Shown piece by piece: positions 3,241 through 31,334 of a stretch of 40,633 bases of DNA. The number at the start of each line of letters is the position of its first letter. Positions within the stretch are counted from its first letter, which is position 1. A program made the translations under genes and the position numbers. Origin of the DNA: a virus. The notes beneath the pieces are model-generated. The model searched no databases. It was not told where the DNA came from and was given only the letters and a program-made list of their open reading frames with translations. The stretch lies in UHGV virus genome UHGV-0140992. One strand, 5' to 3'.

Positions 3241-4233
3241 TTACACCACGCGGGCTTCTGTTTCCAGAAGCGCATCAGTTTCACGGATTGGTACACCACG
3301 GAATGAAGTCCACCACTCGCCTTCTGTCTCTTTTACGCTGATAGCCAGAGATGTTTTCTCCAGAGACTGCAGATCAAGAGCCTGGCCTACAGTGCGGTTC
3401 ATGTAGAACACCGGGCGGCCCATGCCACGGTTTGGAATGCGATGTAGTGCTTTAACCATCAACTTCGCAATATTTGCGGCAGAGGATGGTTCTGAAAGAT
3501 TGCTGACATCGATGTTTGCAATGCGAACAACATAACGCCAGTCACGCAGAGCAAGTCCGTTATCCCATTTGTAATGGGTGCGATAGCCTTCGTACTTGCC
3601 GCCATTAGCATCTTCCAGTGTCACCTGGCCTTTATCTTCCATCTGGATGCCAGCCTTCTGCCCTTTCGGGAAGATGCCATGCACGGTGTTTTCGCCCCAC
3701 ACCACTAACCAGATTGAGGTGTTATCTGTACCCGTGCCACCAGCATCAATGATGTTCTGAGCATTACCCGCAGACAGGCTGGAATAGCGGGAGGACAGTC
3801 CCATAAACTGCTGAGGGTTAACGCTGGAATCACCATAAAACAGCGTCTGCGCCATCTGCTGATTCATCGCTTCAATAAATGCGCGGTCTTCAGACAGGCG
3901 GAATTCGGCGGTATTGCCGTTCAGATCAGCCAGTGACTTATCGACTTCCGCATAGGTTTCCAGCATGCCAACGGAATCGGTTACCTGCACTGTGGTTGAT
4001 TTGCTTGGCTGTACGCCATAGTTCAGCAAACGCCAGGTAGCTGAAGGTAAACCAGAACGAATGGTGGTTCGGTGTCCGGTAGGAAGGTTCCCTTCGACAA
4101 AAGGCATATCCTGAAGGATCGGGTTAGTTTGACCGAGAAGCTCGATAATCTTATCGACTTTCCCGTTTGGATCGACGCGCTTACCCCAGTCAGCCAGCGT
4201 TAGCGCAGTTAAGCCTTTAACAGCCATTGTCAT
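3241..4233 (-). CDS. major capsid protein, 330 aa
   Basis: ORF track; follows the scaffold gene, typical size; assignment by gene order and composition. Confidence 0.65.
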   Translation of the reverse strand: MTMAVKGLTALTLADWGKRVDPNGKVDKIIELLGQTNPILQDMPFVEGNLPTGHRTTIRSGLPSATWRLLNYGVQPSKSTTVQVTDSVGMLETYAEVDKSLADLNGNTAEFRLSEDRAFIEAMNQQMAQTLFYGDSSVNPQQFMGLSSRYSSLSAGNAQNIIDAGGTGTDNTSIWLVVWGENTVHGIFPKGQKAGIQMEDKGQVTLEDANGGKYEGYRTHYKWDNGLALRDWRYVVRIANIDVSNLSEPSSAANIAKLMVKALHRIPNRGMGRPVFYMNRTVGQALDLQSLEKTSLAISVKETEGEWWTSFRGVPIRETDALLETEARVV

Positions 4234-4241
4234 TTCCTCTC

Positions 4242-4943
4242 TTATTTGCCATAGAGCACTTCGGCCGCACTACGCTGGCCTTCATTACCACCGGTGACCA
4301 TGCCATCTTCAGACATCGCCTTTCCGATTTTCACGAACGTTTTGACCAGATCAGGGTGATTACCCAGCCCGGTGGTGTTCAGATATTCTTTGAGTTCAGG
4401 TGTCCCGAACTGGTCAAGCGCACGCTGTGCGGCGCTAAGGTTAGAAATCAACTTGTCGCCACCGATTTCTTTGTCGGCTTTTACATCCGCAGCCCACTGC
4501 TCGGTTGTTTTCTGCCAGGCTTCTGCCTGGCGCTGCTGAACACCTGCCAGAATCTTCGGATAAGCATCAACCAGCTTTTGCGCTTGCTCGTTGGTCAGGT
4601 TTAGTTCTCGCGCCACCGGCTCGAATTCCTTCAACGCTTCTGTATCCAGCTCTACGCCTTCGGCAGCCTGAAACTCGTACTTTTCAGGCGCACCCTCTGG
4701 TTTATCGCCGTCCTTTTTTTCATCCTGCTTATCGTTTTCAGGCTTTTTGTCATCAGCAGGTTTATCGCCATCAGCAACAGGTTGTGGCTTATCACCTTCC
4801 TGTTGTGATGGATCACCAACTGGAGCAGGGTTATCACCTGCAGGCGCTGACGGTTCTGACGCAGCCGGAGCTGCTCCACCATCGACTGGTTGCTCATTGC
4901 AAAGACGGCGATACAGCAAACGCTCAAATAAATTCATGATCAC
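4242..4943 (-). CDS. scaffolding protein, 233 aa
   Basis: acidic, Pro/Ala/Asp/Lys-rich low-complexity N-terminus; located between portal and capsid. Confidence 0.6.
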   Translation of the reverse strand: MIMNLFERLLYRRLCNEQPVDGGAAPAASEPSAPAGDNPAPVGDPSQQEGDKPQPVADGDKPADDKKPENDKQDEKKDGDKPEGAPEKYEFQAAEGVELDTEALKEFEPVARELNLTNEQAQKLVDAYPKILAGVQQRQAEAWQKTTEQWAADVKADKEIGGDKLISNLSAAQRALDQFGTPELKEYLNTTGLGNHPDLVKTFVKIGKAMSEDGMVTGGNEGQRSAAEVLYGK

Positions 4944-8260: not shown

Positions 8261-9736
8261 TTAAGCATAGGGATCGTAATCTGTGATGGCCTTGCCTTGC
8301 TGGTTCTGCTGACCGGGAATTCGCAGACGCTTCGACACAGGGAACGCAAACGTCAGCAGTAGCGCATCGCCTTTACCAGGAGAACGCCCAAGTCGCTCTT
8401 TGATATCTTCCTTCGGTTCGATAACGATTTTACCGTCCACTCGAACTTTGTACTCTGCTGCCGACAGGTCGTCCGCTGTTTCCTGGTCATCCAGCATGCC
8501 GCCCAGCCTCAGCCATGTCTTGCATGAATTGAACATCTCCCCACGCTTGTTGAGCATCTGCGGGTCAGTAGACGCGCCACCGAACGGAACAAGTTGCCAT
8601 GTACGACCCCATCCGTCACCGATTGACTTCAGACCGGTTCCGTAACCGAAGTCGATGAACACCGCGTCAGCCTGATACTGGTCTTCAAAGTCAGCGATAC
8701 GCTTCGCCATAATCAGATCGTCGGTAGTCTTGTTGCCAGTCCACAGCACCTTACTGTGTAGCCCCTGCCGCAGGTATATCACCGCGTCATCAACGCCTGA
8801 ATATGCCGGGTCAACACCGATTATCACCGGAGCATGCGCCACCTGCGCAGCGGTTACCACCCGTTTCATTGCCTCATCAGTAAGACCGGTAGGGATAAAC
8901 TGCAATTCAGATGCATCAGGGAATATGCCGCGCACACGGATTTTAACGAAGTCGCTGTCTTCCCCGTAGTCATCAACCCATTTCTGCAACTGCTGTTTGT
9001 TAGTGCCTTCCACCGTTCGGCTGTCAATCTGCGCAGTTTTCCAGCGGTGTTTATATTTGCGGAAACATTCGCGGAAACGTCCGGTATTACGCGTCGGGTT
9101 TCCGAACGCCACCCAGATAATCTCAGTGTCTTCGTCCGTTAGTGCACCCTCGGCAACTTCCCACACCAGATCCGCAATGTTCGACGCTTCATCGAATACC
9201 ACGATGATGCGTTTGCGCTCGTTGTGTAGTCCGGCGAATGCCTCAGTGTTGTGCTCAGACCAGGGGATTGCGTCAGCTCGCCACCGCTTGTCGTGTCCAG
9301 GATCATTGCTGTACATCGCGGTAGCGGTACAGGTAAACCAGTCTTTCGTGATAGCAAGGTTCGACCACTTGATAATTTCCGGCCAGGTCTTCGTTCGTAG
9401 CTGGTTGTCGGTGTTGGCGGTCACCACGACCTTACAATCCTCGCAAGTGGACATGCCCCAGTTGATCAGCATTGAGATGAATGCGGATTTACCAATACCG
9501 TGACCCGAAGCACGTGCCAGCATAAGCGGCTGATAGCGCGTCTCTGGATTCTGCAGGTGATCACGTATCTCTCGGAACGCATCAGCCTGCCACTGACGTG
9601 GGCCGGTAGCATGTGCCAGTTCAGTCCCCTCTTCCCCCCACGGGAACGCATAGAGGGCATAGCCAAGCGGATCGTGAGTGAACCCTGCAATATCCTCGAT
9701 CAACTGCTCTTCAGGAGATAACGCTGTATCTGTCAC
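8261..9736 (-). CDS. terminase large subunit, 491 aa
   Basis: Walker-A-like GHGIGKS; size; GTG start overlapping the small-subunit stop. Confidence 0.85.
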   Translation of the reverse strand: MTDTALSPEEQLIEDIAGFTHDPLGYALYAFPWGEEGTELAHATGPRQWQADAFREIRDHLQNPETRYQPLMLARASGHGIGKSAFISMLINWGMSTCEDCKVVVTANTDNQLRTKTWPEIIKWSNLAITKDWFTCTATAMYSNDPGHDKRWRADAIPWSEHNTEAFAGLHNERKRIIVVFDEASNIADLVWEVAEGALTDEDTEIIWVAFGNPTRNTGRFRECFRKYKHRWKTAQIDSRTVEGTNKQQLQKWVDDYGEDSDFVKIRVRGIFPDASELQFIPTGLTDEAMKRVVTAAQVAHAPVIIGVDPAYSGVDDAVIYLRQGLHSKVLWTGNKTTDDLIMAKRIADFEDQYQADAVFIDFGYGTGLKSIGDGWGRTWQLVPFGGASTDPQMLNKRGEMFNSCKTWLRLGGMLDDQETADDLSAAEYKVRVDGKIVIEPKEDIKERLGRSPGKGDALLLTFAFPVSKRLRIPGQQNQQGKAITDYDPYA

Positions 9737-10329
9737 TGATTACCATCCTGACGTTCTTTGAGTCGCTTCCTGGCTGCTGCTATGCGATCAGCAATTGTCA
9801 CATTCACATTAACATCCAGACGTTCTTTGAACGCGTTGACATCAACATGCTTACCAATCAGCTCAAGGTTCTTCACCTTGTCAGGCCATTTAATTTTTTT
9901 GAGGATTGTCTCTATCGAATCCTCGTTCATGTTCATGATGGTCGATGACAGATCAAAGCCACTAAGCGTAGTGCGCCAGATTTTCGGCCACTCACGGATT
10001 GGTTTAAGGCTCCCATCGTCGTTGAGGATGTCGATCACGTCCATCTGGTCGATCTCCACCAGGCGCATGAGAACGTAATCAGCACTGACGCGCATTCGTT
10101 TGTTGCGCTCCTCCATCAACTCGGCAATCCGTTTTTGAATGCGTTCATCGCGCATCATGACACTGGCTTTAACTGCCGCTGTATTTGGGGAGAATCCTGC
10201 GTTAATCGCTGCCTGAGTCTGGTTTTCAGGCGTTTTGATGTATGACTGGCAATAAGCCTCCTGCATTGCTGTTAGTGGCTTAAATTGCGTTGATTTGCGT
10301 TTATAGGTTTTAGGTTCAGCAGGCATCAT
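9733..10329 (-). CDS. terminase small subunit (track ORF to 10407; likely start MMPAEPK near 10329)
   Basis: basic/helical protein immediately upstream of TerL; the N-terminal extension in the track is encoded by a DNA tandem repeat. Confidence 0.65.
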   Translation of the reverse strand: MMPAEPKTYKRKSTQFKPLTAMQEAYCQSYIKTPENQTQAAINAGFSPNTAAVKASVMMRDERIQKRIAELMEERNKRMRVSADYVLMRLVEIDQMDVIDILNDDGSLKPIREWPKIWRTTLSGFDLSSTIMNMNEDSIETILKKIKWPDKVKNLELIGKHVDVNAFKERLDVNVNVTIADRIAAARKRLKERQDGNQ

Positions 10330-10336
10330 AACCACC

Positions 10337-10365
10337 GTGGTAATAGTTACCGTTGTGGTAATAGT
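10337..10365. promoter_or_regulatory. tandem GTGGTAATAGT repeat containing operator-type site TTACCGTTGTGGTAA (10347..10361)
   Basis: two 11-bp direct repeats 18 bp apart just upstream of the terminase operon; perfect TTACC-N5-GGTAA. Confidence 0.45.
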
Positions 10366-10372
10366 ACCATGC

Positions 10373-10398
10373 AAAATAAAGCCGCCATAGTTGGCGGC
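10373..10398 (-). terminator. intrinsic terminator
   Basis: gccgcca-tag-ttggcggc hairpin with a T-run on the minus strand. Confidence 0.45.
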
Positions 10399-10439
10399 AG
10401 TATTCAAAACCCATCAAATTCATCATGCATAATCTACTC

Positions 10440-16682: not shown

Positions 16683-16718
16683 AGCTATTGCCTGATATTT
16701 ATTTCAGATAATAAATAT

Positions 16719-16781
16719 TCACCCATAAGGTAACAAAAATCAAGGATAGTTACCTATGAGGTGCATTTACCTGTTGGGTAA
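16719..16781. promoter_or_regulatory. OR-like operator cluster: TCACCCATAAGGTAA (16719), TTACCTATGAGGTGC (16750), TTACCTGTTGGGTAA (16767)
   Basis: three 15-bp inverted repeats at 31- and 17-bp spacing between divergent Cro-like and CI-like genes. Confidence 0.6.
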
Positions 16782-16836: not shown

Positions 16837-17421
16837 ATGAAAAGTATCCAGGACGTCCGCAGGCAAAATCTCAACGACTTGATCGACCGTGAATTCAATG
16901 GTGTTCAGACGCGGATGGCAGAAAAACTTGGAACTCAGGCAAATCTGGTAAACCGCTGGGCTCTTGGCAAGAAGGTTATCGGCGACCAGGTTGCACGAAA
17001 AATTGAAGCTGCCGCCAATAAACCCCGTAACTGGCTTGATATTGATCGTTCGCTTTCTCAGGAGGGTTTTCAGCCTGTCGGCCCGAGCGATATAGGTCAG
17101 CTGGCGGCTCACAACCTGGAACGCTGGATGAGCGAAAGCCGCGACCTTTCAACACAGGGAAAACTTCACCGCGCATCCGGCGTCGCCCAGGTGACAATCA
17201 GCCGCCTGTTAAACAATGAGGTCAGCGTTTCCATTTCCACCCTGGAGAATGTTGCATCCGCATTCGGGCGTCACGGATATGAACTACTGATTCACCCGCA
17301 CGACCCTGCGACTATCAACTATGACCGCTCACGCTACGCATTGTTACCCGAAACCGAGAAAGCAAAGATCGAAAGTTACATTGAATTTGTCATCAACCAG
17401 AACGAAAAAAGCAAACAATAA
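16837..17421 (+). CDS. CI-like immunity repressor, 194 aa, two HTH-like segments, no S24 peptidase domain
   Basis: divergent from the Cro-like gene across the operators; HTH-type N-terminus; no Ala-Gly / GDSM / Lys autocleavage motifs seen. Confidence 0.7.
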   Translation: MKSIQDVRRQNLNDLIDREFNGVQTRMAEKLGTQANLVNRWALGKKVIGDQVARKIEAAANKPRNWLDIDRSLSQEGFQPVGPSDIGQLAAHNLERWMSESRDLSTQGKLHRASGVAQVTISRLLNNEVSVSISTLENVASAFGRHGYELLIHPHDPATINYDRSRYALLPETEKAKIESYIEFVINQNEKSKQ

Positions 17422-17478: not shown

Positions 17479-17555
17479 TTACCTTACGGGTAATTTTTTT
17501 AACTCATATCTATTGACACCAAACCAAATAAGCATAATTATTACCCCAACGGTAA
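17479..17555. promoter_or_regulatory. OL-like operators TTACCTTACGGGTAA (17479) and TTACCCCAACGGTAA (17541) around a TTGACA hexamer
   Basis: two perfect sites flanking TTGACA at 17513, upstream of the plus-strand operon. Confidence 0.55.
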
Positions 17556-17574
17556 CAGACCGAGGTAACAAGTT

Positions 17575-22753: not shown

Positions 22754-22795
22754 AATTCACCCGTATAGAAACCATTTTCATGACGGTATGAGAGT

Positions 22796-24477: not shown

Positions 24478-24868
24478 CGTCTTTTCTCCCCGGAATTAAC
24501 TCGCGTGGATTATCGGAACGGTGATAGAGCCATATACCAATACGCACAGCGACAATTGCTGACACGAATGCGCCTGCAGAGAAAACAATCCCTTTTTCAA
24601 AAGAGTCCTGCGTGATGGTAGGGATCAGGCTGGCTATGCCGATAAGAATTGATGCTGCTGGTTTGTAAAAGAGAAGGCCGCAAAGAAAGCTGAGCATCGA
24701 CAGGAGCACCCGGCGACGGATGGGGTACTCTACTGCAGAGGTAACAAAAATTACCGCCCCAGCCAAAGCCCCTAAAGCAACCTCCGGAGGGGCACCTGCA
24801 ATAACCGCAGCAAGAGAACTAAAACTAAGCAACTGATTTAATTGCTCACTTGTTACTTGAGCAGACAT
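24464..24868 (-). CDS. holin-like membrane protein, 134 aa
   Basis: multiple hydrophobic helices; first gene of the lysis cassette. Confidence 0.45.
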   Translation of the reverse strand: MSAQVTSEQLNQLLSFSSLAAVIAGAPPEVALGALAGAVIFVTSAVEYPIRRRVLLSMLSFLCGLLFYKPAASILIGIASLIPTITQDSFEKGIVFSAGAFVSAIVAVRIGIWLYHRSDNPRELIPGRKDDGNA

Positions 24869-25149: not shown

Positions 25150-25178
25150 CCCGCAAAATATTGCGGGCTTTTTTTTAA
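25150..25178 (+). terminator. plus-strand intrinsic terminator abutting the tailspike stop
   Basis: cccgcaa-aata-ttgcggg followed by CTTTTTTTTAA; U-run only on the plus strand. Confidence 0.45.
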
Positions 25179-28100
25179 CGTTCTTCCAGAGACTGAATCC
25201 GCTCTTTTATCTTATCCATTTCTCTGCGCTGCCATGCTGCCTCGATATAGAATAAGAGATCAGGTCTGACCCCCCATCTAGATCCTGCTGGCGTTATTTC
25301 AACGCGCTCAATGATGTCTTCCATTACCATCACTGGATTATCATCCTCATCAACAATGATGCTCCCGTCATTATCAGTCAGCGGCATTTCCCTTTGGCCA
25401 GTAATGACGTCATCATATACTGCGGGATAATCGTCATAGCAAAGAAAGGCATAGCGGCATGTTGTGCTTTCTTCTTCCATGAGTCCGTGAGAAATAAGAA
25501 CATCACGAAGTTGCTGCGCGATTACACCATGATGTATCCTCGCCCCTTCTTCCCCCTTTATAGCGACAGCGTTCAGCCATTTATAAGCGATATACCTGAC
25601 GTCACCCCAGGCATCCAGCAATGCTTCGTCAGGAGAGACCGGCTCTGTCTTTAATGTTCCGTCACTGGTAACCACAGGATTGGAGCCAAGATAAACTGTC
25701 GAGAACCTGTTTCCCGGACCACCAAGAGCATTTACATTATCAAGATAAGGTTTAACATCTCCGTTCTCAAAAAGATGTTCGAGTGCGTTATATACCGCGC
25801 GACGTGGAGTACTGCTTCCGGAACCATGCAACGTTATCATTGCACCATCTGCTGAAGACGTTATTTCACCGCCGCTAACGATTAATCTCTGAGCGGTAAC
25901 ATCATCAGACGGTACTTTCTTCGCAATAATGGCGTAATTACCCTCAAGTTTGACTTCCGCGCGAACTTGTCCTGATGTACCTGCATGGACAGTCAGTGAC
26001 TGGACGGCAACATCATCTGTGAAATCAACGGGTACAGGAACCGTCCTCACGCCTGACGTCGACATAAAAGTAGGAAGCGTTCTGTTAGGAGTGGCTCCGT
26101 AGACAAAATCCCTTGAAACAAATTCTTCCTGTTTAATTTTCACCCTGAAACAATACAAATCAGCCGGGTGACCATCGTGAACATAAGGATATTTTCTGTT
26201 GTTATCCCCTATGCTCCATGGGTTTAGAAAGTCTTCCCCACCGAAAATGTAGTACAGCCAGTTGTCTTTGATACAAACTGAACCAACACCAACTGCAGAG
26301 TTAACTATTCCGCCCTGATAAATCTGATCAGTAACATTAACCCACTCTACATTATCCAGACTCCACTCATTGACGTTAACTCTGGTCATAAATGTTCTTG
26401 GATAATTTCCTGCATAACGGTTATCAGGTTCTCCTCCTTCCCACTCACCAAATGCGCGCTCACTGCCAAAAATAATCAGCTCATCGCCAACTTTGGCAAA
26501 AGGAAGGTTTGAGTGATGAACATTATTTGGGAAGCGAAGAGAATTCCATGATGTACCTAAATCAGAGCTTCTGTGCAATGAACTACCGGGTTGAGTACTT
26601 AATGTCCCCCTGGTCGTCAGATACAGAATGCCATCATAATATTTTACACATGGCTCAGATGCATTCGCCTCATATTCTGCAGGTATGCGTCTGCGAACAA
26701 AGCTACCAGGAGAACCGAAAGCATCAGAGAAATAGAGTATCCCAAGCTCGCGTGGACCAATATCACCATTATGGTAGCCAACAGCAAAACTGTTATCGCT
26801 AATCGTCGCAAAACTGTGAATCTCAGTAACAGGAGTGCTTCCGTCAACAAAAGAAGGAATAGTTCCAAGACTGGTTTTTCTCCATGGTGACGAGTGAAAT
26901 GATGTACCAAAACTCCAGTATCTACCCTCGTTATTCTGATCCACATCCTGGGTATTTTGCGTCGTAACTGTAAAAGTATTTTTATCAATAACAGTAGTCA
27001 CCGTCATATTCCCGGTAACACCTGTAACACCAGAGTTTGAGAAGTTGACAAAATCACCAGCAAATAATCCGTGATCAGTAATGCGAATATAAGCGACTTG
27101 CTGATTTGCTGCTTTCGTTATACCACCATAAGCGCGAAGGCTGCGACTCATTGGGCGATCCCACAACTCTGCAACCTGCAGTTTATTTCCGCTCACGGTC
27201 CGCGTCTCAATTACAGCAAAAAGGCGATTTCTGACAACCCCCATACTCATGCAGTGATAGTTAACTGTGGGATAGTTTTCATGTAAATCTGTAAGCCATT
27301 CCGGCGTTGTCCAGGTCTTCCCGTCATCTCCTGAGCGAACCCATGCAACATGGAGGTTATTTACACCATGGCGGTCTCCAGCCATAAAAGGCGCATAGAT
27401 GACATTGTCATATACAAACGTTTTATCCTGCGTCCAGGCGTTGTACCACGGTGTATCTGTAATTTTAAATAACTCTCCCTGGATAAAATCTTCAGAAGCA
27501 TAAAAAAGAGGCTGGCCCGGTATTCTCTCAAATAAAAAACGAGCATTTTTAAATCGACTGACATCCGGAAGAGTTGATACTTTAAAAGTAAGCCCTAATC
27601 CGTCAATTTTATAACCTGGAGATGAGGCTTCAAGGCACGCGCTTATTGCAGTGGAATCGTCATTTATACCATCACCAACAGCTCCAAAATCTTTGGGGCT
27701 AATAGCATCACGCATTTTATCCTGGAACGTTCGGTACACAGCCCCAGAACCATACTGAATAAACCAACCAAAACCACCAACAACCCCGGCGATTGCAGCA
27801 TCGACATAATTACGCATTGAGCGATTATTTACAGCGTCCTGCTCAAATGATGGATCTGCAAGGTTAGAAATTTTGTTTTGCTTTGCATCGTAATATTTTG
27901 CAAGCAAAGATGGTTTCATCAATGCACGTCTGAACCACCCAAAACATTGCTGGATCAGCATCGTCAGGTAGTCAAAGGCATCTTCATGCACTTCGGGGAA
28001 AAATTTTCCCTGATTGCGAAGGTCTGTCTCCTGCACTACATCAAGCACACGATCTATCGTAATTCGCCATCCAGTAGCAAGCGGAGACGGAAGAACCACA

Positions 28101-28294
28101 GAACCGCCACTATAAGTGCCCGCCCCAGTTACCGTATAACCGGTATCCAGAACCAATTCTGTTACGTTTCCGTTCAGGTCAGACACCTGAACAACCAGGT
28201 CTGATTTTCTGAAAATTCGAAAAGTATACGGAAACGATGTCGTAACGCCGTTACCGGTGTATTCGTTGTGGTCAACTTCGGTTGAGACCGTCAT
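25175..28294 (-). CDS. tailspike endo-N-acetylneuraminidase (K1 endosialidase) with C-terminal intramolecular chaperone domain, 1039 aa
   Basis: long blocks match recalled phage K1F endosialidase (FERIPGQPLFYASEDFIQGELFKITDTPWYNAW ... EWLTDLHENYPTVNYHCMSMGV); chaperone-domain motifs (LGSNPVVTS, TEPV, DAWGDV) near the C-terminus. Confidence 0.85.
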   Translation of the reverse strand: MTVSTEVDHNEYTGNGVTTSFPYTFRIFRKSDLVVQVSDLNGNVTELVLDTGYTVTGAGTYSGGSVVLPSPLATGWRITIDRVLDVVQETDLRNQGKFFPEVHEDAFDYLTMLIQQCFGWFRRALMKPSLLAKYYDAKQNKISNLADPSFEQDAVNNRSMRNYVDAAIAGVVGGFGWFIQYGSGAVYRTFQDKMRDAISPKDFGAVGDGINDDSTAISACLEASSPGYKIDGLGLTFKVSTLPDVSRFKNARFLFERIPGQPLFYASEDFIQGELFKITDTPWYNAWTQDKTFVYDNVIYAPFMAGDRHGVNNLHVAWVRSGDDGKTWTTPEWLTDLHENYPTVNYHCMSMGVVRNRLFAVIETRTVSGNKLQVAELWDRPMSRSLRAYGGITKAANQQVAYIRITDHGLFAGDFVNFSNSGVTGVTGNMTVTTVIDKNTFTVTTQNTQDVDQNNEGRYWSFGTSFHSSPWRKTSLGTIPSFVDGSTPVTEIHSFATISDNSFAVGYHNGDIGPRELGILYFSDAFGSPGSFVRRRIPAEYEANASEPCVKYYDGILYLTTRGTLSTQPGSSLHRSSDLGTSWNSLRFPNNVHHSNLPFAKVGDELIIFGSERAFGEWEGGEPDNRYAGNYPRTFMTRVNVNEWSLDNVEWVNVTDQIYQGGIVNSAVGVGSVCIKDNWLYYIFGGEDFLNPWSIGDNNRKYPYVHDGHPADLYCFRVKIKQEEFVSRDFVYGATPNRTLPTFMSTSGVRTVPVPVDFTDDVAVQSLTVHAGTSGQVRAEVKLEGNYAIIAKKVPSDDVTAQRLIVSGGEITSSADGAMITLHGSGSSTPRRAVYNALEHLFENGDVKPYLDNVNALGGPGNRFSTVYLGSNPVVTSDGTLKTEPVSPDEALLDAWGDVRYIAYKWLNAVAIKGEEGARIHHGVIAQQLRDVLISHGLMEEESTTCRYAFLCYDDYPAVYDDVITGQREMPLTDNDGSIIVDEDDNPVMVMEDIIERVEITPAGSRWGVRPDLLFYIEAAWQRREMDKIKERIQSLEER

Positions 28295-28398
28295 GTTAAA
28301 TCTCCAGATAGTCGCAGCACCCGTTGCGCCGCATATCTGGTTATTCTATTACCTGGAAAACCACATATGGATAGAAAGGATGTAAATACGAATAGATA

Positions 28399-28470: not shown

Positions 28471-28489
28471 ATTGCATGGAGAAGATAAG

Positions 28490-28747
28490 ATGCAGCAGTA
28501 TCACTATCCACTGGAAGACGGATTTACCGAAAGGATTCACACGCCGGGAGGCGTCAGGTCACTGGTGGAGGGATCGCACTTGATGAAATTACTCCGGGAT
28601 CTCGATAAGGATGGATTTAATGTCGATGGCCCACTTGCCGAACTGACTGCACTGATTAACTACGTCACCAGCTCACAGATGTCTATGCAGGATCTGCAAA
28701 CACATCTCGACTATTGTGCCGAACAATTACGAAAACAAACCCGGTAA
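28490..28747 (+). CDS. small antirepressor-like protein, 85 aa (track 28472 is TTG; ATG at 28490)
   Basis: GGAGAAG RBS; LexA box and operator upstream; about 45 percent identical by eye to the C-terminal domain of the Bro-N protein at 29896..30606. Confidence 0.55.
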   Translation: MQQYHYPLEDGFTERIHTPGGVRSLVEGSHLMKLLRDLDKDGFNVDGPLAELTALINYVTSSQMSMQDLQTHLDYCAEQLRKQTR

Positions 28748-28769
28748 ATTTAAAGGCCGCAAGAGCGGC

Positions 28770-29498
28770 CTATCGTTTCGCTTTGTGCTCGTCCCAGCAC
28801 GTTTTGCACCATGCCATTAAGCCGTCCGCATTTTGATTATTAGGGTAAAAGCTGGTCCGTTTTCTGCGGACATTACAAATTGGGCACCACTTCATATGGC
28901 GTGTATTCTTTGGGCCATCGAGACACCTTGCACACCACTTAGTCAATCCATCTGGATTTTTTGACGATTTCCGGAATTTGTCATATGGAAGGTTTATTCT
29001 GCATCGCAAACACTGCTTGCGGCCACTTGAAACTCTGTTAGCTGATTCTTCTTTTGGCGGCGATACAGAAGGTATTCTTGCTGGCTCTGATACTGCCTGA
29101 GGTGCTTTTTTAGATGACTGAGACGATATGTCATCACCAGGGAATCTTCCATGATATGCCGGACGCATTGATACTCCAGGTGGAAGCTCAGCTGTAAACG
29201 GCTTTGGCTGAATCAGTTGCCTCTCTTTTGCTAACTCCTGCTGTTTACAATATGTCTGGATTACCGCACTATCATAAGCAGGAGGTGCGGAAATATTAGG
29301 CGCATTACCTCCAGTTTTTTGAAACTGAGTAGAGGTGTGTTCTATCACCTGTGTACGATTAATCGTTATCTCCCCATCTTCGGTCTTTATCGTTTTGTTA
29401 TGATTAACGACCGTACGATCAGAGATCTTAGTCTTGTTCTGGTTGATAACGTAAATAATCACCGCAACCACACCAACAACTATCCAGAAAACTTCCAT
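28770..29498 (-). CDS. membrane-anchored protein with duplicated CxxC zinc-ribbon module, 242 aa
   Basis: N-terminal TM helix; two copies of CxxC-x(20)-DGL-xx-WC-xx-C; GAGGAA RBS. Confidence 0.5.
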   Translation of the reverse strand: MEVFWIVVGVVAVIIYVINQNKTKISDRTVVNHNKTIKTEDGEITINRTQVIEHTSTQFQKTGGNAPNISAPPAYDSAVIQTYCKQQELAKERQLIQPKPFTAELPPGVSMRPAYHGRFPGDDISSQSSKKAPQAVSEPARIPSVSPPKEESANRVSSGRKQCLRCRINLPYDKFRKSSKNPDGLTKWCARCLDGPKNTRHMKWCPICNVRRKRTSFYPNNQNADGLMAWCKTCWDEHKAKR

Positions 29499-29518
29499 TG
29501 CTTTTCCTCACAATAACA

Positions 29519-29626
29519 TTACCTTAAAGGTAATATCTTGCTTTCAGGTGATCAAGCGTTAAACGCCACCAACCAAATACGGTTGATTTTGATATTTCTC
29601 CGCGTTTATCATTACCTTTGCGGTAA
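29519..29626. promoter_or_regulatory. operator-type sites TTACCTTAAAGGTAA (29519..29533) and TTACCTTTGCGGTAA (29612..29626)
   Basis: perfect half-sites between the divergent 242-aa gene and the Bro-N gene. Confidence 0.45.
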
Positions 29627-29639
29627 ATTTACATCGCAC

Positions 29640-29880
29640 TCCTCTTGTGCCATAGTAATCGGGCACTGGCAAAATCCAGTGCCGGGATTGGCGTCCCGGG
29701 TTACTAAGTGGCGCATACCACGCCAGACGTGGTTTTTTTATGCGTTAAGCACAGCTATATCCGAATTATGGTGGGCTGGGCAGGGGTCCGAAAGGACGCC
29801 GGTACCACTTAGGCCGGTACGCCAACCTTGTCCAGTTCACCACCAGTAATTGGCGTTGCGGTGGTGATTAAAATCACTAA
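29640..29880 (+). other. highly structured non-coding leader upstream of the Bro-N gene
   Basis: nested inverted repeats GGCACTGG-caaaat-CCAGTGCC and CCGGGA-ttggcg-TCCCGG; CCACG-ccaga-CGTGG followed by TTTTTTTA; direct repeat GCCGGTAC. Confidence 0.3.
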
Positions 29881-29895
29881 GTGGAGATAACCACC

Positions 29896-30606
29896 ATGGC
29901 TAATGCTCAAACTTCCATCTTCAAATTTGAATCTGTTAACCCTATCCGTTCCATCATTATCGATGGCCAACCATGGTTTGTAGCCCAAGACGTTTGTAGT
30001 GCGCTGCGTATCCAAAACGTCACCCAAGCACTTGAAAAACTGGATGATGATGAAAGGTCTATGTTCAACATAGGGCATGAACATCGTGCAATTTTTGACA
30101 GCCGAGTAAAAGAGATCAACATCATCTCCGAGTCAGGCCTCTACACACTGATCCTCCGCTGCCGCGACGCAGTGACACCAGGCACTATCCCCTACCGCTT
30201 TCGTAAATGGGTTACGGGTGAGGTTCTTCCTCAGATCCGCCGCACCGGAAGCTACATTAAAAACTCGCTCCCGCAGGAAGAACGCATAAAGATGGTTGCC
30301 GACCAGGTGGCCAACGCCACGGCGTCAGCAGTAATGCAGGCGATGAAGATAGAGAACAAAACCTACAGCGCCCCACTGAATCCCGGCTACCGCAGCCTGA
30401 TTCATTCGCCGTCTGGTGTTCTCGGCCTGACGGAGAACTCACTGCTGATGAATCTGCTGAACCAGTTACAGGACGACGGGCACGACGTATCGGGCGCGGC
30501 GGCGGAGCTGACCACCATGTTCTGCTACATCGTCGGTGTGAGCAAATGCCTGCGTGATATCCAGACCCACGCGGAATACATCAACGACAAGGCAGGGTTC
30601 TTCTGA
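29896..30606 (+). CDS. Bro-N domain antirepressor-like protein, 236 aa (ATG at 29896)
   Basis: N-terminal Bro-N-type motifs (FKFESVNPIRSIIIDGQPWFVAQDVCSAL); C-terminal domain paralogous to the 28490 gene. Confidence 0.65.
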   Translation: MANAQTSIFKFESVNPIRSIIIDGQPWFVAQDVCSALRIQNVTQALEKLDDDERSMFNIGHEHRAIFDSRVKEINIISESGLYTLILRCRDAVTPGTIPYRFRKWVTGEVLPQIRRTGSYIKNSLPQEERIKMVADQVANATASAVMQAMKIENKTYSAPLNPGYRSLIHSPSGVLGLTENSLLMNLLNQLQDDGHDVSGAAAELTTMFCYIVGVSKCLRDIQTHAEYINDKAGFF

Positions 30607-30640: not shown

Positions 30641-30678
30641 TCTGTACAGATTGCAGACTGTGGGTGAATAGCGTACTA

Positions 30679-30705: not shown

Positions 30706-30873
30706 ATGACAGCGTTGAAAAATCGTACTCAGCACAATGAACAAGCCAAGCAATGCTGGGATGTCATTGGAAAAGTTATGCTTGGCCGCGCAAGCAAAGA
30801 GCGCGACAAGGATATGGTTTACCAGACAGGAACATCTTTCAGCGACTTCAAGGCGGCATTTCGCTCCAAATAG
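30706..30873 (+). CDS. possible small protein, 55 aa (MTALKNRTQHNEQAKQCWDVIGKVMLGRASK...)
   Basis: AGGAGG RBS 6 nt upstream; operator directly upstream; below the ORF-track cutoff. Confidence 0.4.
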   Translation: MTALKNRTQHNEQAKQCWDVIGKVMLGRASKERDKDMVYQTGTSFSDFKAAFRSK

Positions 30874-30893
30874 AAGCACATCAGGAGTTTTCC

Positions 30894-31334
30894 TTGAAGT
30901 TTAACATTAGAATATCTAATAGTTTTCTACATGGGGAAAGCAACACCCCTTTCGCTGTAGACGGACCTTTCCTTACTGATGATGAAATAAAAATCATACA
31001 AAGTTTTTTAGAGGATGTTGCCAATGGAAGGGCGCTTGTTGGAAAAAACAAGCCCTCGTGGGTTGATGATAACCATGATAAAATTCCCGGCTCAGACAAT
31101 TATGAGCAAGAGAATTATTGGCATTATCATTGTGGGCCAACATGGTATCCAAACACATTTAAGAATTATACCATTAACTTAAATTTCAACCCTGGCGGAA
31201 GGCATTCTAATGAATGCATTCATTATGCAAAAAATGATAATGAAATTGTCATTGTTGGATTTTCAAGAGAACACATACCTTTCCTTTCATCAGATGGAAA
31301 CAACAATCCGCTTTTTAATGATGAAGAAGAATAG
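30894..31334 (+). CDS. hypothetical AT-rich moron protein, about 146 aa (TTG start; track ORF begins 30753)
   Basis: AGGAG RBS 7 nt before in-frame TTG; markedly AT-rich codons versus flanks; acidic C-terminus. Confidence 0.4.
   Translation: MKFNIRISNSFLHGESNTPFAVDGPFLTDDEIKIIQSFLEDVANGRALVGKNKPSWVDDNHDKIPGSDNYEQENYWHYHCGPTWYPNTFKNYTINLNFNPGGRHSNECIHYAKNDNEIVIVGFSREHIPFLSSDGNNNPLFNDEEE

Follow-up and report, generated by a model that had tools for sequence, protein, structure and literature searches.

Only a few phage exclusion proteins of the inner membrane have been described (SieA, Imm, HK97 gp15), and the mechanisms by which they act are poorly understood. For many exclusion proteins the site of action is the periplasm. 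On the map of phage P22, sieA shares with ant an island that separates the tailspike gene from the ejection-protein genes. With regard to proteins that work from a membrane anchor, E. coli ZipA has a long Pro/Gln-rich tether and binds FtsZ, and the phi29 protein p16.7 combines a coiled coil with a helical DNA-binding domain. The p16.7 protein, which the phage makes early, binds DNA at the membrane (PMC4974454). Stc1, the sole studied homologue of the zinc module considered here, uses its domain for protein-protein contact with Ago1 (PMC2875855).

The gene described here lies in an epsilon15-like (Uetakevirus) E. coli prophage, which constitutes the whole 40,633-nt stretch of DNA that was analysed (the window). 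The coding sequence occupies positions 28770-29498 of the minus strand, stop codon included, and specifies 242 amino acids from an ATG start. An initial sequence-only reading had described the gene as antisense to its neighbours, and indeed both flanking genes (28472-28747 and 29881-30606) are on the plus strand. The open reading frame is matched over its full length by the PHROG profile phrog_6762 (residues 1-242 against positions 1-242 of 242, E = 1.9e-149) and has 33 homologous clusters. The gene is real, intact and under purifying selection, with dN/dS values against E. coli variants below 1 in the zinc module (0.05-0.17), the N-terminus (0.13-0.32) and the linker (0.36-0.79). A longer or broken version of the gene in TL-2011b, where it is recorded as a 1089-nt "misc_feature", was considered and dismissed, as the reading frame there is intact and encodes 242 residues; a 244-aa gene in the same slot of a Pectobacterium prophage is unrelated.

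The phrog_6762 family is annotated as function unknown, and all records describe its members as hypothetical. No Pfam, NCBIfam or PADLOC family scored above threshold for the 242-aa protein (the best PADLOC model reached E = 4.1, and none was accepted), and searches of Pfam, NCBIfam, PHROG and PADLOC revealed no sequence similarity to described exclusion or defence families (Sie, Imm, Sp, Rex and the PADLOC models). In the literature, nothing was found on phrog_6762, on the Stc1 domain in phage, or on zinc-ribbon transmembrane proteins of prophages in superinfection exclusion. The earlier remark that the family could not be recognised is thus a fair one for the protein as a whole, yet its zinc module is itself recognisable.

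Hydropathy, AlphaFold2 (AF2) models and sequence inspection agree with the anatomy first proposed, namely a single transmembrane helix, a Pro/Ser-rich linker and two copies of a cysteine motif. The N-terminal anchor corresponds to amino acids 3-21 (VFWIVVGVVAVIIYVINQN; positions 29436-29492, minus strand, checked against the translation), which form the hydropathy maximum and the only hydrophobic segment of the whole protein; AF2 places a helix at residues 3-23 with a pLDDT of ~90. The anchor is preceded by just Met-Glu, and its C-terminal flank carries a net charge of +2 to +4 in nearly all members, being the more positive side in 49 of 54 family members. The hydropathy profile, the modelled helix and this positive-inside pattern together predict a bitopic inner-membrane protein with an N-out/C-in topology, the remainder of which would be cytoplasmic. 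A role as a signalling factor, which had been raised as a candidate, finds no support here, as only about two residues would project beyond the membrane.

The opposite topology would make the N-terminus a signal anchor and place a disulfide-bonded, cysteine-rich domain in the periplasm, where it could block a receptor or the ejection apparatus. The eight cysteines of the C-terminal domain and the periplasmic site of action of many exclusion proteins are compatible with such an arrangement, but the charges flanking the anchor point the other way, the transfer of a domain with a net charge of +16 across the membrane would be unfavourable, and the paired CxxC knuckles are of a kind that usually binds zinc, with homology to cytoplasmic and nuclear zinc fingers. 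The periplasmic arrangement was rejected on these grounds, and we regard it as most improbable.

The anchor is followed by a conserved juxtamembrane segment (residues 25-55, SDRTVV..KTIKTEDGEI.I.RTQV; 29334-29426, minus strand) in which T39 and G42 are invariant and E43 is almost so in the family alignment. This segment is retained by distant homologues and is predicted to form a beta-hairpin, with AF2 strands at residues 29-39 and 42-52 modelled at a low pLDDT of ~50. Residues 56-158 (29025-29333, minus strand) make up a Ser/Pro/Ala/Gln-rich tether (13.6% Ser and 13.6% Pro) that is predicted to be disordered, with pLDDT mostly below 50. The tether differs in length among homologues and accumulates many indels in the alignment, and it is the linker region with the dN/dS of 0.36-0.79 given above.

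The C-terminal part of the protein comprises two predicted zinc ribbons, both encoded on the minus strand and both modelled with a pLDDT above 90. The first spans residues 159-198 (28905-29024), with a Cys4 core at residues 163-192 (28923-29012; CLRCRINLPYDKFRKSSKNPDGLTKWCARC), and the second, together with a C-terminal helix, spans residues 201-242 (28773-28898), with its core at residues 205-234 (28797-28886; CPICNVRRKRTSFYPNNQNADGLMAWCKTC). The duplicated CxxC, DGL and WC-xx-C elements of the motif first reported are present, but not the 20-residue spacing assigned to them: the actual form is CxxC-x16-DGL-xx-WC-xx-C. Profile-profile comparison aligned repeat 1 with repeat 2 over 38 columns without gaps (96.7% probability, E = 4.7e-10) and, judged from this alignment, the internal duplication is not due to chance. 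The positions invariant across the superfamily are all eight cysteines, F175, G184, W188 and W230, with no His or Asn among them in either repeat. The module is strongly basic, with 22 Lys/Arg against six Asp/Glu (net charge +16, pI 10.1), and a basic module with a net charge of +7 to +17 was found in all 54 members checked.

Several lines of comparison bear on the kinship of these ribbons. Pfam Stc1 (PF12898) matched in two stretches with 21.6 bits and E = 3.2e-4, which is below its gathering threshold of 24.8, and wider relatives that carry the same module exceed the Stc1 threshold with 34-61 bits; roughly 1,800 proteins contain the module. In PHROG, matches to the endonuclease VII, HNH and primase families are located in their zinc-ribbon portions, and elsewhere the same module is fused to helicases. 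The best sequence match in the PDB is the N-terminus of PacI (E = 0.07, spanning the first 41 PacI residues), and the top PDB match in Foldseek is Stc1 (2LUY). Fold matches in BFVD are to HNH, EndoVII and beta-beta-alpha-Me endonucleases (E ~1e-6), and Hpy99I holds one non-catalytic and one catalytic repeat. By these profile and fold matches, the predicted ribbons appear to be related, without being catalytic, both to the tandem zinc finger of Stc1 and to the beta4-alpha zinc repeats found with HNH/EndoVII enzymes.

The prevalence of HNH, EndoVII and restriction endonucleases among the fold and profile neighbours could be taken to mean that the protein is itself a working HNH/beta-beta-alpha-Me nuclease, bound to the membrane and degrading either incoming or host DNA. 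However, the superfamily alignment revealed neither a conserved His general base nor conserved Asn/Asp/His metal ligands in either repeat, the matches lie in zinc-ribbon regions of the nucleases (for PacI, its first 41 residues), Hpy99I has a non-catalytic as well as a catalytic repeat, and a Cys-Cys spacing of 22 residues cannot accommodate a complete HNH motif. Nuclease activity was rejected for these reasons and is, in our estimation, scarcely credible.

The gene is carried on a small cassette at 28748-29605 that comprises the terminator, the gene and the promoter/operator region and is absent from phiV10-type relatives. Blastn homology to phiV10 ends at 28747 and restarts at ~29606-29622, so that the right edge of the cassette is approximate (29605-29621), and phage matches span the flanks alone. 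The accessory-island placement originally assigned to the gene therefore holds, with clean boundaries. The gene is absent from phiV10 and ZX5, both of which are viable phages, and is present in 129 of the ~531 E. coli genomes with a flanking gene of this prophage type, so that it is missing from approximately three quarters of such prophages in E. coli; it is found in ~2% of complete E. coli genomes. Given its predicted promoter and terminator, its presence/absence polymorphism and its clean boundaries, the gene is a self-contained moron. Family members are found in phages of Enterobacterales, Aeromonas, Acinetobacter, Pasteurellaceae and marine Gammaproteobacteria. A genome scan with a narrow search pattern returned at least 10 related loci, and scans of viral contigs returned mostly near-identical E. 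coli copies.

Sequences upstream of the gene suggest that its transcription is under repressor control. A Shine-Dalgarno sequence, GAGGAA (29504-29509, minus strand), lies 5 nt upstream of the ATG, and a perfect 17-bp palindromic operator, ATTACCTTAAAGGTAAT (29518-29534), lies 19 nt upstream of the ATG. The window holds 14 copies of the palindrome, ATTACC-N5-GGTAAT, where 1.06 would be expected, and no shuffle out of 100 reached that count; the palindrome has reportedly been proposed earlier as the epsilon15 operator. The operator noticed in the promoter region by the sequence-only reading is thus one of these 14 sites. It overlaps the -10 element and the likely transcription start of a predicted sigma-70 promoter (29527-29555, minus strand) with a -35 of TTGATC (29555-29550), a 17-nt spacer and a -10 of TACCTT (29532-29527). 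A consensus promoter scanner made no call at TTGATC-17-TACCTT, and the promoter was deduced from the alignment of homologues: the -35 TTGAnn lines up in five divergent homologues, and an operator-free copy in Buttiauxella has TTGACG-18-TATTAT at the equivalent place. An alternative extended -10 (TGtTATTGT) was rejected on inspection, as the Shine-Dalgarno sequence would then have no space. Downstream, a GC-rich hairpin terminator (28754-28771, minus strand; 7-bp stem with six GC pairs in a terminator scan) lies between the convergent genes.

The operator-over-core-promoter geometry, as read from the sequences, is conserved in five other genera and points to a putative repressor regulon, for which the candidate repressor is a 194-aa HTH protein encoded at 16837-17421. 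In the Enterobacter, Citrobacter-like, Serratia, Pectobacterium and Providencia homologues the palindrome starts 33-45 nt upstream of the ATG, with variant half-sites in Pectobacterium (TTTACC..GGTAAA) and Providencia (TTAACC..GGTTAA). In the window, the operator covers the -10 just as it does at the early promoter near 17540, and the gene is therefore probably off in a lysogen of this phage; it may be early-lytic in this phage rather than lysogen-expressed. Such regulation would be a poor fit to a classical exclusion gene that is expressed by the lysogen. The regulatory contexts of homologues vary, being operator-controlled, cI-linked or apparently constitutive.

In other phages the gene keeps close company with immunity genes. 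It lies directly downstream of CI (HTH_3 plus Peptidase_S24), on the same strand, in Aeromonas phiARM81mr, in three Acinetobacter loci and in one Marinobacterium locus; these five phages are independent, and the position is that of lambda rexAB. Two further loci have the gene convergent with cI, and three have it beside Arc, KilA-N, Bro-N or Rha regulators. Among the epsilon15-like prophages examined, the gene is next to such regulators in all but the Providencia prophage, whose island contains no antirepressor (ant). In gammaproteobacterial phages the family almost always adjoins immunity genes, cI or ant/arc. Distant homologues at the rexAB position, and others beside ant/arc, provide indirect support for superinfection exclusion, in that placement in the immunity region is guilt by association.

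The same neighbourhoods could be read as those of a membrane-tethered adaptor, in which the twin fingers would hold a protein at the membrane. The protein held might be a host factor of defence or regulation, or part of the phage's own repressor/antirepressor switch, and holding it would adjust the choice between lysis and lysogeny or counteract a host system. Among solved tandem fingers the closest, that of Stc1, contacts a protein, Ago1; the gene repeatedly adjoins cI, ant, arc and Rha regulators; its predicted repressor-controlled, early-type expression would suit a takeover or anti-defence role; and a J-domain fusion is present (P0104). However, no conserved partner gene was found, the small transmembrane protein adjoining the gene in Acinetobacter phages having no homologue in the window, and the Providencia island is wholly without ant. 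A polyanion is the likelier ligand in view of the extreme positive charge, which is conserved, and of the relationship to the accessory ribbons of nucleases and helicases. Protein sequestration of this kind is possible, and we consider it somewhat doubtful.

A polyanion ligand could also be the phage's own DNA, with the protein anchoring replicating or packaging DNA in the manner of phi29 p16.7 and thereby aiding lytic growth. The layout, with an N-terminal transmembrane segment and a C-terminal DNA-binding domain, is that of the early protein p16.7 (PMC4974454), the zinc module is basic, and the predicted operator-controlled, early-type expression would be suitable. Yet the gene is dispensable, as its absence from phiV10, ZX5 and approximately three quarters of such E. 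coli prophages indicates, and lambda-like relatives carry it where it would be transcribed with cI, in a unit that is active in lysogens, where the phage does not replicate. An anchor for the phage's own DNA is accordingly an unlikely function.

The explanation that we tentatively favour, while granting it less than even confidence, is that the gene encodes an accessory protein of the immunity region, tethered to the membrane, that would bind nucleic acid or else a partner protein and so exclude or defend against other phages. Anchor, flexible tether and zinc pair would together form a membrane-anchored "fishing line", with nucleic acid the most likely ligand of the basic zinc module on the cytoplasmic side of the membrane, and incoming phage DNA would be captured or blocked while crossing the inner membrane. 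Like T4 Imm, the protein would be made in this phage once repressor is lacking, either soon after infection or upon induction; in lambda-like relatives, expression together with cI would place it in the lysogen, as with Rex. Acidic phospholipid or RNA would be equally conceivable ligands for so basic a domain. A broader and more speculative proposal, to which we attach rather little confidence, is that these proteins constitute a new and widespread class of immunity-region defence or exclusion factors, in which a membrane-tethered, catalytically dead twin ribbon of HNH type would seize foreign DNA emerging from the inner membrane, cotranscribed with cI in lambda-like phages and gated by repressor in epsilon15-like ones.

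The architecture of the family, an anchor, a tether and a DNA-type zinc module, is clean and testable. Should incoming DNA be blocked or captured, this would represent a new mechanism in phage-phage competition and, if true, would bear on phage therapy directed at pathogenic E. coli, K1 among them, in which these prophages reside. Should a protein be bound instead, the family would represent a new type of regulator that governs the lysis-lysogeny switch by sequestration at the membrane. In both cases, the nameless family phrog_6762 gains a predicted domain structure, topology and regulation.

Among known systems, the module can be set beside the LIM-like tandem zinc finger of S. pombe Stc1 (PF12898, 2LUY), with the Pfam score falling short of threshold as noted above; Stc1 is soluble and acts in the nucleus as an adaptor for Ago1, whereas the phage protein is membrane-anchored and far more basic. 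The first repeat of Hpy99I and the N-terminus of PacI, non-catalytic Cys4 beta4-alpha2 repeats of beta-beta-alpha-Me nucleases, are among the closest known relatives. In phage HNH/EndoVII endonucleases, arrays of zinc ribbons precede the nuclease, whereas here there is no nuclease domain and a membrane anchor is found instead. The overall plan of a single N-terminal transmembrane segment, a spacer and a C-terminal ligand-binding domain, with everything beyond the anchor predicted to be cytoplasmic, is that of phi29 p16.7 and E. coli ZipA, with no kinship in sequence or fold. Five lambda-like relatives share with lambda rexAB the position directly downstream of cI, and elsewhere the gene lies in an ant-bearing island between tailspike and ejection-protein genes, as P22 sieA does. 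Like rexAB, sieA and T4 imm, the gene described here specifies a membrane protein and is dispensable and patchily distributed; it has no homology to them, and in contrast to them its product is mostly cytoplasmic, predicted to bind zinc and, in this phage, apparently controlled by repressor.

The gene at 28770-29498 (minus strand; 242 codons with an ATG start in the ORF list) is real, selected and mobile. It lies in an epsilon15-like (Uetakevirus) prophage that adjoins yfgI in E. coli chromosomes. Phage TL-2011b matches the region throughout; phiV10, ZX5, phiv142-3 and others match it in the flanks only. In a pairwise comparison, phiV10 homology ends at 28747, the end of an epsilon15 gp19-like gene, and restarts at ~29606-29622. 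The ~860 bp that are extra relative to phiV10 comprise a terminator (a GC-rich hairpin at 28754-28771 in the terminator scan), the ORF and a promoter region, and read as a classic moron cassette. The flanking gene is present in 531 of 5,426 complete E. coli genomes and the ORF in 129 of these 531, all copies being full-length, chromosomal and annotated "hypothetical protein". In TL-2011b (L001, 5470-6558) the intact 242-aa ORF is listed merely as a 1089-nt misc_feature "similar to hypothetical protein". The tailspike encoded at 25175-28294 (minus strand) is an endosialidase, a K1 polysialic-acid depolymerase on an epsilon15-type N-terminal adaptor, so the prophage would target K1-encapsulated E. 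coli; unrelated receptor-binding parts occupy the tailspike position in related prophages.

A sequence-only reading had proposed a single N-terminal transmembrane (TM) helix, which is borne out by hydropathy (aa 3-21, with only Met-Glu before it) and by the AF2 model (helix 3-23, pLDDT about 90). The conserved juxtamembrane stretch seen in the alignment (aa 25-55) is predicted by AF2, at low confidence, to form a beta-hairpin. The linker of ~100 residues is predicted to be disordered, differs in length among homologues, and is as Pro/Ser-rich as had been described (13.6% each of Ser and Pro). The two zinc motifs of that reading are found at aa 163-192 and 205-234 with the pattern intact, but 16 residues rather than 20 precede DGL (C-x2-C-x16-DGL-x2-WC-x2-C), and a short helix ends the protein. 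The internal duplication is genuine: in profile-profile alignment, the family profiles of repeats 1 and 2 match without a gap across 38 columns (96.7% probability, E = 4.7e-10). Purifying selection acts on the gene, dN/dS against E. coli variants being below 1 in the zinc module (0.05-0.17), the N-terminal module (0.13-0.32) and the linker (0.36-0.79).

The TM helix is flanked by Met-Glu on its N-side and by NQNKTKISDR... (net charge +2) on its C-side; in 49 of 54 family members the flank behind the helix is more positive than the one before it. Lys/Arg number 22 and Asp/Glu 6 within the C-terminal 88 residues (pI 10.1), and the net charge of the last 85 residues is +7 to +17 in every family member examined. 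The positive C-flank, the basic C-terminus and the zinc-knuckle pattern would place the ribbons in the cytoplasm, in an N-out/C-in topology, hung from the membrane on the ~100-residue tether; a periplasmic, disulfide-bonded domain is highly improbable. This layout parallels those of ZipA and phage phi29 p16.7, with homology to neither.

The fold of the zinc module is of a known family. AF2, a check suggested with the sequence-only reading, models it at pLDDT above 90 in the full-length protein and at a mean of 88 as an isolated domain, each repeat as four short strands and a helix. The top PDB match in Foldseek is the Stc1 tandem finger 2LUY (E = 6.7e-3), and BFVD yields 35 matches at E <= 1e-3, mostly HNH/EndoVII/beta-beta-alpha-Me endonucleases, giant-virus "Zn-finger proteins" and phage "Stc1 domain" proteins. 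By sequence, the top PDB match is the PacI N-terminal CxxC...CxxC (E = 0.07), and Pfam Stc1 scores 21.6 bits, just below its cut-off of 24.8, with wider relatives reaching 34-61 bits. PHROG profiles for endonuclease VII, HNH endonuclease, "Lar-like" and primase proteins are also matched (E down to 8e-12), always on the ribbon part of those proteins. Gut Caudoviricetes relatives are auto-labelled "Meiotic chromosome segregation protein", the title of the Stc1 structure.

Hpy99I is built from a pair of beta4-alpha2 repeats with a Cys4 zinc in each, of which repeat 2 is the catalytic beta-beta-alpha-Me unit and the non-catalytic repeat 1 reads the major groove (PMC2699513). In the family alignments, a conserved His or Asn at the HNH-required places is absent from both repeats, so the protein is not classed as a nuclease; that identity was rejected, and an active enzyme akin to the HNH and endonuclease VII proteins is scarcely credible. 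The computed product is predicted to be anchored at its N-terminus and to hold in the cytoplasm a twin Cys4 module that is strongly basic and non-catalytic. Stc1 fingers mediate Ago1 binding, a protein-protein contact (PMC2875855), so the fold alone cannot choose between a nucleic-acid and a protein ligand. An adaptor that sequesters a protein, tuning the phage switch or countering a host factor, is possible, if on balance unlikely. Because of the kinship with accessory ribbons of nucleases and helicases, and of the positive charge, the module would probably bind a polyanion, most plausibly DNA.

Over its full length the protein fits the profile of phrog_6762, a family of unknown function (E = 1.9e-149), and Pfam, NCBIfam and PADLOC gave no family above threshold. 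A word-indexed search returned 33 homologous clusters, all from Enterobacterales, and an exhaustive profile search 1,847 proteins at E <= 1e-3; among the representatives listed from the latter, ~50 combine TM helix, hairpin, variable linker and twin ribbon. The eight Cys, F175, G184, W188 and W230 are invariant across the superfamily, and the module appears to be a widely reused adaptor. Elsewhere it occurs in arrays of up to 10 copies, and fused to SF1 (AAA_11/AAA_12) and SF2 (ResIII/DEAD) helicases, HEAT repeats and one J-domain (proteins P0046, P0103 and P0104). The CDS of Yersinia phage YeP5 (L017, 1900-2634) has an annotated start about 29 codons too early, and its protein carries a (KT)8 repeat right behind the TM helix.

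The putative operator noticed earlier in the promoter region is one of 14 copies in the window of a 17-bp palindrome, ATTACC-N5-GGTAAT with up to 2 mismatches allowed, against 1.06 expected (7223, 10328, 10346, 14417, 14479, 16766, 17478, 17540, 22795, 24509, 28398, 29518, 29611 and 30678); none of 100 shuffles reached 14. The copy at 29518-29534, 19 nt upstream of the ATG, is a perfect palindrome. The 12 matches with at most one mismatch fall outside the long ORFs, 10328 and 10346 counting as such only without the long TTG-started reading of 9733-10407; of the two sites with 2 mismatches, the one at 24509 falls inside an ORF and the one at 22795 between genes, upstream of the integrase gene. 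Operators stand on both sides of the HTH repressor gene (16837-17421, HTH_3), and the accessory-island genes are each preceded by one (28398, 29518, 29611, 30678). Such dispersed sites, nearly all intergenic before transcription units, suggest a genome-wide repressor regulon and resemble the scattered C1 operators of P1. The epsilon15 genome paper reportedly proposed the ATTACC..GGTAAT palindrome as the operator. Degenerate copies at ~16718-16734 and ~16749-16765 would make a tripartite operator beside the repressor gene.

In aligned upstream regions of five divergent homologues the -35 is conserved. The predicted -35 here is TTGATC (29555-29550, minus strand), and the predicted -10, TACCTT (29532-29527, minus strand), lies 17 nt downstream within the left operator half-site. 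In other homologues the operator starts 33 to 45 nt upstream of the ATG and reads ATTACCTTATGGGTAAT (Enterobacter and Citrobacter-like), GTTACCTTAATGGTGAT (Serratia), TTTACCTTTGAGGTAAA (Pectobacterium) or TTAACCTACTGGGTTAA (Providencia); the half-site therefore varies by phage and the position is kept. An operator is absent from the Buttiauxella copy, where TTGACG-18-TATTAT occupies the corresponding position. A strong early-type promoter at ~17510-17556 (TTGACA-17-AATTAT, then an operator) has the same geometry as that of the twin-ribbon gene. Computation thus puts a predicted operator over the gene's promoter in this phage lineage, and we infer that in this phage repression would keep the gene off in the lysogen, with expression following infection or induction.

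A P1-type immI control module (29650-29894, plus strand) lies directly upstream of the Bro-N antirepressor gene, ant (29881-30606, plus strand), with Rfam matches to isrK (67.7 bits, 29663-29739), c4-a1b1 (44 bits) and C4 antisense RNA (66 bits, 29764-29847). Its direct repeats, 29687-29699/29849-29861 and 29703-29721/29876-29894, resemble the a1b1 and a2b2 target pairs, and the second covers the ant Shine-Dalgarno and likely true start (ATG 29896). The 91-aa epsilon15 gp19-like protein (28472-28747, plus strand; phrog_450; own operator at 28398) shares 42% identity over 74 aa (E = 4e-15) with the C-terminal domain of the Bro-N antirepressor; it appears to be a stand-alone paralogue of that domain and could act as a decoy or modulator of Ant. 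The gene at 30753-31334 (plus strand; own operator at 30678; phrog_5954, function unknown) has no Pfam match and no evident antitoxin gene alongside; PGAP calls its counterpart in EC67 and TL-2011b a YafO-family toxin.

The twin-ribbon gene of epsilon15-like prophages in Serratia, Pectobacterium, Enterobacter and Providencia always occupies the variable tailspike-to-ejection/virion-protein island; its place and orientation there vary, and antirepressors (Bro-N, KilA-N or Rha) and toxin genes usually accompany it. In Yersinia phages YeP4, YeP5 and YeP6 it adjoins virion-protein genes near the record end. In distant lambda-like phages it lies directly 3' of the CI gene (HTH_3 + Peptidase_S24), on the same strand, with divergent cro. 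The gap is 18 nt in Aeromonas phiARM81mr and a Marinobacterium locus (L185); Acinetobacter L183 also has the gene directly behind cI, and in Acinetobacter L175 and L178 a small TM protein gene intervenes. The gene abuts cI convergently in Pseudoalteromonas (L182) and Oceanobacter (L184), accompanies Arc, KilA-N, Bro-N/P22_AR_C or Rha genes in Acinetobacter L179, Haemophilus L180 and Edwardsiella L177, and in Buttiauxella is part of a small element that also encodes resolvases and a CI-like repressor. Computationally, then, its relatives cluster with immunity genes. The place downstream of cI is that of lambda rexAB, and P22 sieA and immI are located in the tailspike-ejection-protein island; the family thus counts as an accessory gene of the immunity region, a place where morons are already known.

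No conserved partner gene was found across the family. In Acinetobacter-type lambda-like phages, a conserved ~100-aa multi-TM protein gene (L175 3039-3335, L178 1046-1342, L173 3776-4087) lies between cI and the twin-ribbon gene or right after the latter, and its product may be a clade-specific partner; the window holds no homologue of it. In Marinobacterium L185, the cI-linked twin-ribbon gene is followed by one for a secreted staphylococcal-nuclease homologue with an Excalibur domain (3713-4366), a further candidate, within that operon, for a conflict gene expressed in lysogens.

The most economical mechanism, put forward tentatively and at less than even confidence, is that the basic ribbons would work at the membrane's inner face in conflicts between phages, intercepting DNA as it enters. 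A p16.7-like anchor for the phage's own DNA would share the layout; it is weakened because the gene is dispensable and cI-linked, and is doubtful. A literature search found no description of the anchor, hairpin, tether and twin-ribbon architecture, its distribution or its consistent cI/ant linkage, and the gene stands as a well-defined candidate open to experiment, not as proof of a new mechanism. Regulation is the main internal tension in the interception proposal: the cI-linked copies imply expression in lysogens, whereas the operator-covered promoter here implies expression only without repressor. An early host-takeover or anti-defence function would fit the latter, and such repressor-absent expression would resemble the type of T4 imm, an early exclusion gene.
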